From assembly GCF_050320075.1 (NCBI RefSeq), contig NZ_CP190018.1: a stretch of 64,000 nucleotides of DNA; one strand, 5' to 3'. The position numbers were made by a program, and so were the translations under genes. Shown piece by piece: positions 63,335 through 63,795 of the stretch (its first letter is position 1; each line of letters opens with the position of its first letter). This DNA is from Escherichia coli (lineage in GTDB: Bacteria; Pseudomonadota; Gammaproteobacteria; Enterobacterales; Enterobacteriaceae). The notes beneath the pieces are model-generated. The model worked only from the letters and a program-made list of their open reading frames with translations. It had not been told where the DNA came from and did no database searches.

Positions 63335-63416
63335 AAAAAACCTGCTGGTGAGGCAGGTTCTTTTATTTACTATTTTCAGGCCCAACACCGCAGCCTGTGC
63401 AACATCGTGTTCCAAC
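63335..63416 (-). ncRNA. Candidate antisense small RNA (putative type I antitoxin), about 80 nt
   Basis: Minus-strand promoter (-35 TTGCAA 63446-63451, 17-bp spacer, -10 TATAAT 63423-63428) predicts a start near 63416; terminator at 63341-63371; its 5' 20 nt would pair 19/20 with the peptide-mRNA leader at 63563-63582. Prediction only. Confidence 0.35.
63341..63371. terminator. Bidirectional rho-independent terminator
   Basis: aaaaaaa-cctgctggtgaggcagg-ttctttt: GC stem flanked by A-run and T-run. Confidence 0.6.
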
Positions 63417-63422
63417 GAACGA

Positions 63423-63472
63423 ATTATAACCATCGGTGGACCCCGTTGCAATTAAGATAATGAGATTTATAA
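63423..63472. promoter_or_regulatory. Candidate divergent sigma70 promoters sharing a palindromic -35 (TTGCAA)
   Basis: Plus strand: TTGCAA (63446-63451), 15-bp spacer, TATAAT (63467-63472); minus strand: same -35, 17-bp spacer, TATAAT (63423-63428). Confidence 0.4.
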
Positions 63473-63654
63473 TCCAGACGGTTGGGACGTTGCGCCGGAT
63501 CGGACCAATTTTAAGTCCTGGCTACCGGACGGGTGGTGCTGCAGGTGGTGCCCTGATCCGGAGTGCAACATCGTGGTCCAACATACGTAAACCAGTATCG
63601 ACAGGCAGTGTAAGGGTAAGGTGCTGGTGTTGCGCTCCTTAATAAGGAGAGCGG

Positions 63655-63744
63655 ATGGACACGCTGACACAAAAGTTAACCGTGCTCATTGCCGTACTGG
63701 AGCTATTAGTGGCTCTGTTACGGTTGATTGATTTGTTGAAGTAA
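63655..63744 (+). CDS. Candidate 29-aa hydrophobic peptide, type I toxin-like (TisB/DinQ/ZorO-like)
   Basis: ATG at 63655 preceded by RBS aaggag (63644-63649); MDTLTQKLTVLIAVLELLVALLRLIDLLK, one predicted amphipathic/TM helix; about 175-nt predicted leader; terminator follows. Confidence 0.5.
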   Translation: MDTLTQKLTVLIAVLELLVALLRLIDLLK

Positions 63745-63754
63745 TGGGCAAATT

Positions 63755-63795
63755 GAAACGCATCTAAGGGGGAATACCGTTTCCCCCTTTAATAA
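63755..63795. terminator. Rho-independent terminator after the small-peptide ORF (possibly bidirectional, also serving yehI)
   Basis: aaggggga ataccgtt tccccctt hairpin followed by a T-rich tract. Confidence 0.6.

Follow-up and report, generated by a model that had tools for sequence, protein, structure and literature searches.

A 29-codon reading frame preceded by two divergent promoters, at positions 63335-63795 of the window (the whole 64,000-nucleotide stretch of Escherichia coli DNA analyzed here), raises the question of whether this intergenic region holds a toxin-antitoxin locus and, if so, whether that locus is new. A sequence-only reading had described a type I toxin-antitoxin locus in which a divergent, trans-acting small RNA (sRNA) pairs through its 5′ end with the middle of the toxin mRNA leader. 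It had named zor-orz as the closest family, had allowed for novelty, and had proposed a homology search and a comparison with K-12. Our analysis indicates that the region is almost certainly a zor-orz type I toxin-antitoxin locus, present here as a single copy between the E. coli genes yehL and yehK. The layout described from the letters agrees with a match to the Rfam family RF02083, with the identity of the encoded peptide to ZorO, and with the published architecture; a toxin-antitoxin locus of functional type is recognizable from raw sequence, as that reading recognized it. The suggestion of novelty falls, as zor-orz is a known, published and experimentally tested family. The discovery value is small, since the literature already covers the locus itself, the rules of its RNA-RNA specificity, the processing of its leader and its distribution in the population. 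The outcome of our analysis is the correction of one flanking gene to yehK and the typing of this copy as an RNA pair of P specificity that encodes the ZorO protein.

Toxin gene and antitoxin RNA

The zor-orz system goes back to a 2010 prediction in E. coli O157:H7 EDL933, which carries the tandem pairs zorO-orzO (z3289) and zorP-orzP (z3290), and experiments have established the zorO-orzO pair of this strain as a genuine type I system (PMC3919570). [quoted passage not shown] The homology search gave an exact ZorO peptide and an sRNA region that matches the OrzO-P family. The toxin coding sequence (63655-63744, plus strand; 29 residues and a stop codon) was taken from the open reading frame list, and its product, MDTLTQKLTVLIAVLELLVALLRLIDLLK, is letter for letter the ZorO peptide synthesized in an earlier study (PMC6669753). 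An exact-sequence look-up returned 'Small toxic protein ZorO' (UniProt ZORO_ECO57), present on at least 1000 contigs. No family was found in an NCBIfam scan of the 29-residue peptide; because NCBIfam holds no model for it, membership of the Zor protein rests on exact identity rather than on a profile.

For the RNA, an Rfam scan of positions 62500-64000 places the OrzO-P RNA antitoxin family (RF02083) at 63334-63409 on the minus strand (E = 3e-17), with 101.3 bits where the gathering score is 60. The match is full-length (model positions 1-76), lies 41 bits over the gathering threshold, and is the sole such Rfam match in the whole 64-kb window. Together with the identity of the peptide to ZorO, it confirms the family named by the sequence-only reading. 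An Rfam scan of 62500-64000 in E-value mode (E up to 1) gave no match to the tisB/istR-1, dinQ/agrB or shoB/ohsC sRNA families and left OrzO-P as the only significant antitoxin match. Matches to the Thr and Trp leaders on the orz terminator were sub-threshold terminator look-alikes and were dismissed. All sequence-testable features that define the zor-orz family (Fozo 2010; Wen 2014) are present in the window locus, and no sequence evidence against the zor-orz reading was found in it. What is established for this locus is its sequence identity and its membership of the family, the motifs of its promoters and terminators, the cognate pairing and the genomic context.

A consensus scan of 63100-64000 found exactly two promoter-like sites, both of which use the same palindromic −35 hexamer, TTGCAA (63446-63451, both strands). 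The −10 box of zor, TATAAT, lies at 63468-63473 on the plus strand with a spacer of 16, and that of orz, also TATAAT, lies at 63423-63428 on the minus strand with a spacer of 17. Each promoter scored 10/12, in accordance with the single −35 element serving two divergent TATAAT boxes that had been noticed from the letters. A TTGCAA −35 and a TATAAT −10 are tabulated for zor and orz alike in the 2024 population survey (PMC11264685, Table 3), and the hexamers of the window are the same as those in both directions.

The zor +1 was set at 63481 from the −10 box, 7 nt past it, which gives a putative 5′ UTR of 174 nt (63481-63654, plus strand) if the start corresponds to that of EDL933 zorO. With this start, the Orz target lies at +83 to +102, and the ribosome binding site (RBS) AAGGAG (63644-63649, plus strand), which precedes the ATG by 5 nt in the sequence, at +164 to +169. 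The published zorO mRNA has a 5′ UTR of 174 nt, an RBS at +164 to +169 and an EAP (exposed after processing) region at +73 to +102 (PMC5397157). The strong Shine-Dalgarno sequence and the leader of about 175 nt in the sequence-only reading are borne out by these values. The leader is identical to the EHEC zorP leader at 170/175 positions. By the coordinates of PMC5397157, the EAP, a putative ribosome-standby region, would correspond to 63553-63582 on the plus strand, and a conserved GGAGTG at 63560-63565 (plus strand) matches the GGAGTG/AG motif of PMC11264685. If processing removes 28 nt (Δ28), the shortened mRNA would begin at about 63509.

The orz sRNA gene, of the OrzP specificity type, is located at 63334-63416 on the minus strand by the RF02083 match and by a +1 placed at 63416 in view of the −10 box and of the 5′ end published for OrzO (PMC3919570). 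The resulting RNA of about 83 nt, from 63416 to 63334, ends in the terminator U-run and agrees with the minus-strand RNA of about 80 nt described earlier. Its intrinsic terminator (63327-63371, minus strand) is a GC-rich hairpin followed by U7. The inverted repeat (63327-63345 and 63353-63371) has 19-nt arms that are 95% complementary, flanked by an A-run and a T-run; it was called by a terminator scan and is the 3′ hairpin of both the Rfam consensus and the MFE fold. The other end of the locus is less clear-cut. The sequence-only reading had placed the open reading frame between two terminators, and the upstream one is called by the scan. The downstream hairpin (63766-63789, plus strand) does fold, with a 9-bp stem formed by GGGGGAAUA and UUUCCCCCU and a centroid energy of −15.3 kcal/mol, and it is kept in both EHEC copies, but it is not called by the terminator scan and has a weak T-run (TTTAAT). 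It is probably the zor terminator. Only about 8 nt separate the end of the hairpin from the stop codon of yehK, which is read from the other strand (63766-63797), so that zor and yehK are convergent. Its T-run is poor in both directions, and zor and yehK may use 63766-63789 as a two-way terminator.

Pairing and expected regulation

The 5′ seed of the sRNA (63397-63416, minus strand) and its target in the zor leader (63563-63582, plus strand) form a direct repeat that is 19/20 identical, recovered at the same coordinates and with the same identity as in the sequence-only reading. The repeat extends to 25 nt at 88% (63397-63421 versus 63563-63587). The predicted cognate duplex follows a 6(1)13 pattern, that is, 6 pairs, one A·G mismatch and 13 pairs. 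Published work sets the pairing threshold at 15 or more continuous pairs, or at 17 or more discontinuous pairs with one mismatch (PMC3919570, PMC11264685), and the 19 discontinuous pairs of the window exceed the latter minimum. Computed with the 22-nt sRNA 5′ end only, the duplex energy is −34.0 kcal/mol, a value reached by 0 of 2000 shuffled seeds. The target lies inside the published EAP region. RNAduplex run with the whole 83-nt sRNA returned a long duplex, which was rejected as an artefact because intramolecular structure is ignored in that calculation.

Folding of the mRNA was examined with ViennaRNA. In the full-length mRNA, the RBS has an unpaired probability of 0.07, i.e., it is predicted to be paired, and the published zorO structure likewise has the RBS sequestered in a stem (PMC5397157). 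Removing 28 nt raises the unpaired probability of the EAP from 0.30 to 0.41. As this predicted opening is modest, the folds do not clearly recover the structural change that has been published, and they are not relied on as evidence.

The regulation expected at this locus can be outlined from EDL933 zorO-orzO. Two divergent sigma-70 promoters with one common palindromic −35 would drive the two transcripts: a zor mRNA with its 174-nt leader, the 29-residue open reading frame identical to ZorO and the 3′ hairpin, and an Orz sRNA that would be about 83 nt long and stop at the 63334-63371 terminator. The full-length leader would sequester the RBS and hinder translation, as it does in EDL933. Loss of the first 28 nt would expose the EAP, or putative standby region, and raise translation. 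The first 18-20 nt of Orz would then pair with the EAP region, blocking translation and leading to RNase III-dependent decay of the mRNA. ZorO, if made, would insert into the inner membrane, causing depolarization, a drop in ATP and growth arrest. Overexpression of ZorO in the EDL933 zorO-orzO system is toxic, and cognate Orz rescues growth in an RNase III-dependent manner (PMC3919570); Hfq is not needed for Orz action in the published EDL933 zorO-orzO experiments. In the parts of the literature drawn on here, all functional data come from EDL933 zorO-orzO, and a rescue test of zorP-orzP was not found. By homology, the transcription starts, processing, RNase III dependence and toxicity of the window locus would be those of its relatives. 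Toxicity and rescue would be expected here because the protein is identical to ZorO and the pairing is intact.

This arrangement has counterparts in tisB/istR-1 and dinQ/agrB. These systems resemble zor-orz in a helical inner-membrane toxin of 27-29 residues, in a long, structured leader activated by 5′ processing, and in a standby-type site that is hit by the 5′ end of a divergent sRNA, with cleavage by RNase III (PMC5397157). The window locus is not a sequence member of either, as it has no Rfam match to them, and the chromosomal sites differ. SOS control of zor-orz is not mentioned in the portions of the published accounts drawn on here.

Specificity type and relation to the EHEC copies

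The window was aligned with an EHEC-type strain carrying both zor-orz copies and with BL21. Over the whole locus, it is identical at 445/462 positions (96%) to the yehL-proximal EHEC copy and at 410/460 positions to the yehK-proximal copy. The leader target site shows the same order, with 20/20 identities to the former and 13/20 to the latter, and orz is 81/83 identical to the yehL-proximal copy. The coding sequence reverses it, with 87/90 identities to the yehL-proximal copy versus 89/90 to the yehK-proximal copy.

The sRNA 5′ end, GUUGGAACACGAUGUUGCAC, carries the V1 triplet ACG; it reads GUUGGAAC-ACG-AUGUUGCAC, with V1 at sRNA positions 9-11. This triplet sets specificity, being GAA in OrzO and ACG in OrzP (Wen et al., PMC3919570). 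Because V1 of the window sRNA is ACG, the window RNA pair was assigned to the OrzP/zorP specificity type. The Zor protein of the window has T3, as in the ZorO variant, whereas ZorP of EDL933 has S3; the ZorO T3 variant accounts for 72.5% of all zor open reading frames (PMC11264685). As typed from these positions, the RNA pair is of the OrzP/zorP type and the protein is the common ZorO variant.

Comparison with each EDL933 pair leads to the same mixed picture. The zorP-orzP pair, the yehL-proximal member of the tandem, is like the window locus in its site beside yehL and in overall sequence (445/462 nt). The sRNA 5′ end with its ACG triplet is identical, the target matches at 20/20 positions, and the 6(1)13 duplex is as in the window; promoters, RBS and leader length are the same. 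The differences are S3 in place of T3 and the copy number, as the window has a single copy without the O-type unit before yehK. The zorO-orzO pair encodes a 29-residue toxin identical to that of the window (coding sequence 89/90 nt) and shares its architecture, promoters, 174-nt leader, RBS position and EAP target. However, OrzO has GAA as V1 and forms 18 continuous pairs, in contrast to ACG and the 6(1)13 pattern of the window. OrzP does not repress zorO (PMC3919570). Predicted cross-duplexes between the window RNAs and the EHEC O-type partners are weaker, at −18.9 and −24.4 kcal/mol versus −34.0 kcal/mol for the cognate duplex.

Because P-type RNA specificity is combined here with a coding sequence and 3′ end nearer the O copy, we considered whether the single copy is a recombinant that arose by unequal crossover between tandem P and O units. 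We regard this origin as unlikely. Were it correct, the Zor protein variant and the RNA specificity type would assort independently, and the exchange could inform the avoidance of cross-talk and the origin of the orz-only state of K-12; it would be a minor evolutionary footnote.

Genomic context, distribution and alternative readings

The sequence-only reading had placed the locus between yehL and yehI and had seen no YehK reading frame. This part is incorrect. Translation of the minus strand at 63798-63998 gives the last 66 residues of YehK and the stop codon, so that the 3′ part of yehK occupies 63798-64000, outside the toxin-antitoxin locus. The annotation of strain M217, which is 99.9% identical, has yehK at the equivalent of 63798-64118 and yehI after it. 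The YehK frame was overlooked because it runs off the end of the window. In M217, the EHEC-type strain and BL21, the annotated neighbors are yehL and yehK, one on each side. A place between these two genes in E. coli and Shigella is among the defining features of the zor-orz family.

The yehL gene of the window (62134-63222, minus strand) is a pseudogene. Relative to EHEC yehL, it has an 11-bp frameshifting deletion at about 62867/62868, after gene nucleotide 355, which splits the gene into reading frames at 62767-63288 and 62145-62795. In M217, yehL is annotated as 'frameshifted' and yehM as having an 'internal stop'.

The window holds one zor-orz unit, which directly adjoins yehK. No second copy was detected in the window, either by the Rfam scan or by searching for the initial 40 nt of the coding sequence with as many as 3 mismatches allowed. 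A published survey of 2,212 assemblies found one full pair in 25%, two in 42%, orz only in about 30% and neither in 3% (PMC11264685), and published copy states are 0.5, 1, 2, 3 or 4. In our search of complete E. coli genomes, 3397 of 5426 (about 63%) contained the toxin mRNA region with at least 90% identity, at a median of 2 places per genome, and 5,240 of the 5,426 were matched by the whole query, the yehL and yehK ends included. Among the matches listed, nearly all records have no RefSeq/PGAP feature ('none') over the toxin mRNA region. Four matches to the zor mRNA region in this search lay on plasmids, and up to four copies occurred per genome. Both observations fit PMC11264685, in which a rare two-copy locus carried by a plasmid and an isolate with four copies are described.

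A zor-orz locus can also lose its toxin gene, and the window could in principle hold a decayed, inactive remnant, like the orz-only state of K-12 and BL21, rather than a working pair. In the BL21-derived strain Rosetta2-DE3, an orphan orz (RF02083, 96.5 bits) is found at 2635-2710 of the compared locus, equivalent to window positions 63334-63409. The BL21-type orz still has its promoter, and about 35 nt of the zor leader remain, the rest of zor being deleted. The orphan OrzPmg locus of K-12 MG1655 and BL21 occupies the same site as the window locus and keeps orz and its promoter (80/83 identical); MG1655 is published as orz-only, the same state as BL21 (PMC11264685). About 30% of E. coli assemblies have likewise lost zor and kept orz, and decay is evident close by, in the frameshifting deletion in yehL of this strain and in the internal stop in yehM of the near-identical M217. 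However, the deletion in K-12 and BL21 removes the equivalents of 63516-63795, a stretch that is present in the window. Most of the zor leader, the target site, the open reading frame and the 3′ hairpin are missing from K-12 and BL21, and all are present here. Every element of the window locus is intact, including both promoters (10/12 each), the RBS, the 29-residue reading frame identical to ZorO, the 19-pair target and the sRNA terminator. A decayed remnant is therefore a very improbable description of this locus, and we retain the reading as a complete zor-orz pair.

A second reading would make the locus a new type I family, alike only in layout to TisB/IstR-1, DinQ/AgrB or zor-orz. The points in its favor are only the architectural resemblance described from the letters and the absence of RefSeq annotation over the toxin gene in most genomes among the matches listed. 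Against it stand the identity of the peptide to ZorO, an sRNA score 41 bits above the RF02083 gathering threshold, 96% identity to a zor-orz copy that EHEC has at this chromosomal site, and the lack of a match to any other Rfam antitoxin family in the region at E up to 1; we give it practically no credence. The idea that the small reading frame and the repeat arose by chance, in an intergenic region or in a degraded yehK, has the small size of the frame in its favor and is just as negligible, given that yehK is intact and separate from 63798 onward, that 3397 of 5426 complete genomes share the region with at least 90% identity, and that none of the 2000 shuffles reached the duplex energy. A degraded yehK as the source of the region was accordingly rejected. 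The identity results already refute the new-family reading, and the chance reading is refuted as well.

Elsewhere in the window, the Peptidase-S11 RNA motif (Rfam RF03039) was found at 42872-42952 on the plus strand, with 72.8 bits against a gathering score of 34.8. The motif is directly upstream of a 313-residue open reading frame (42948-43889), which, from its position and the motif, we take to be pbpG (PBP7, D-alanyl-D-alanine endopeptidase). A convergent open reading frame of 582 residues (43927-45675) lies downstream of the putative pbpG.
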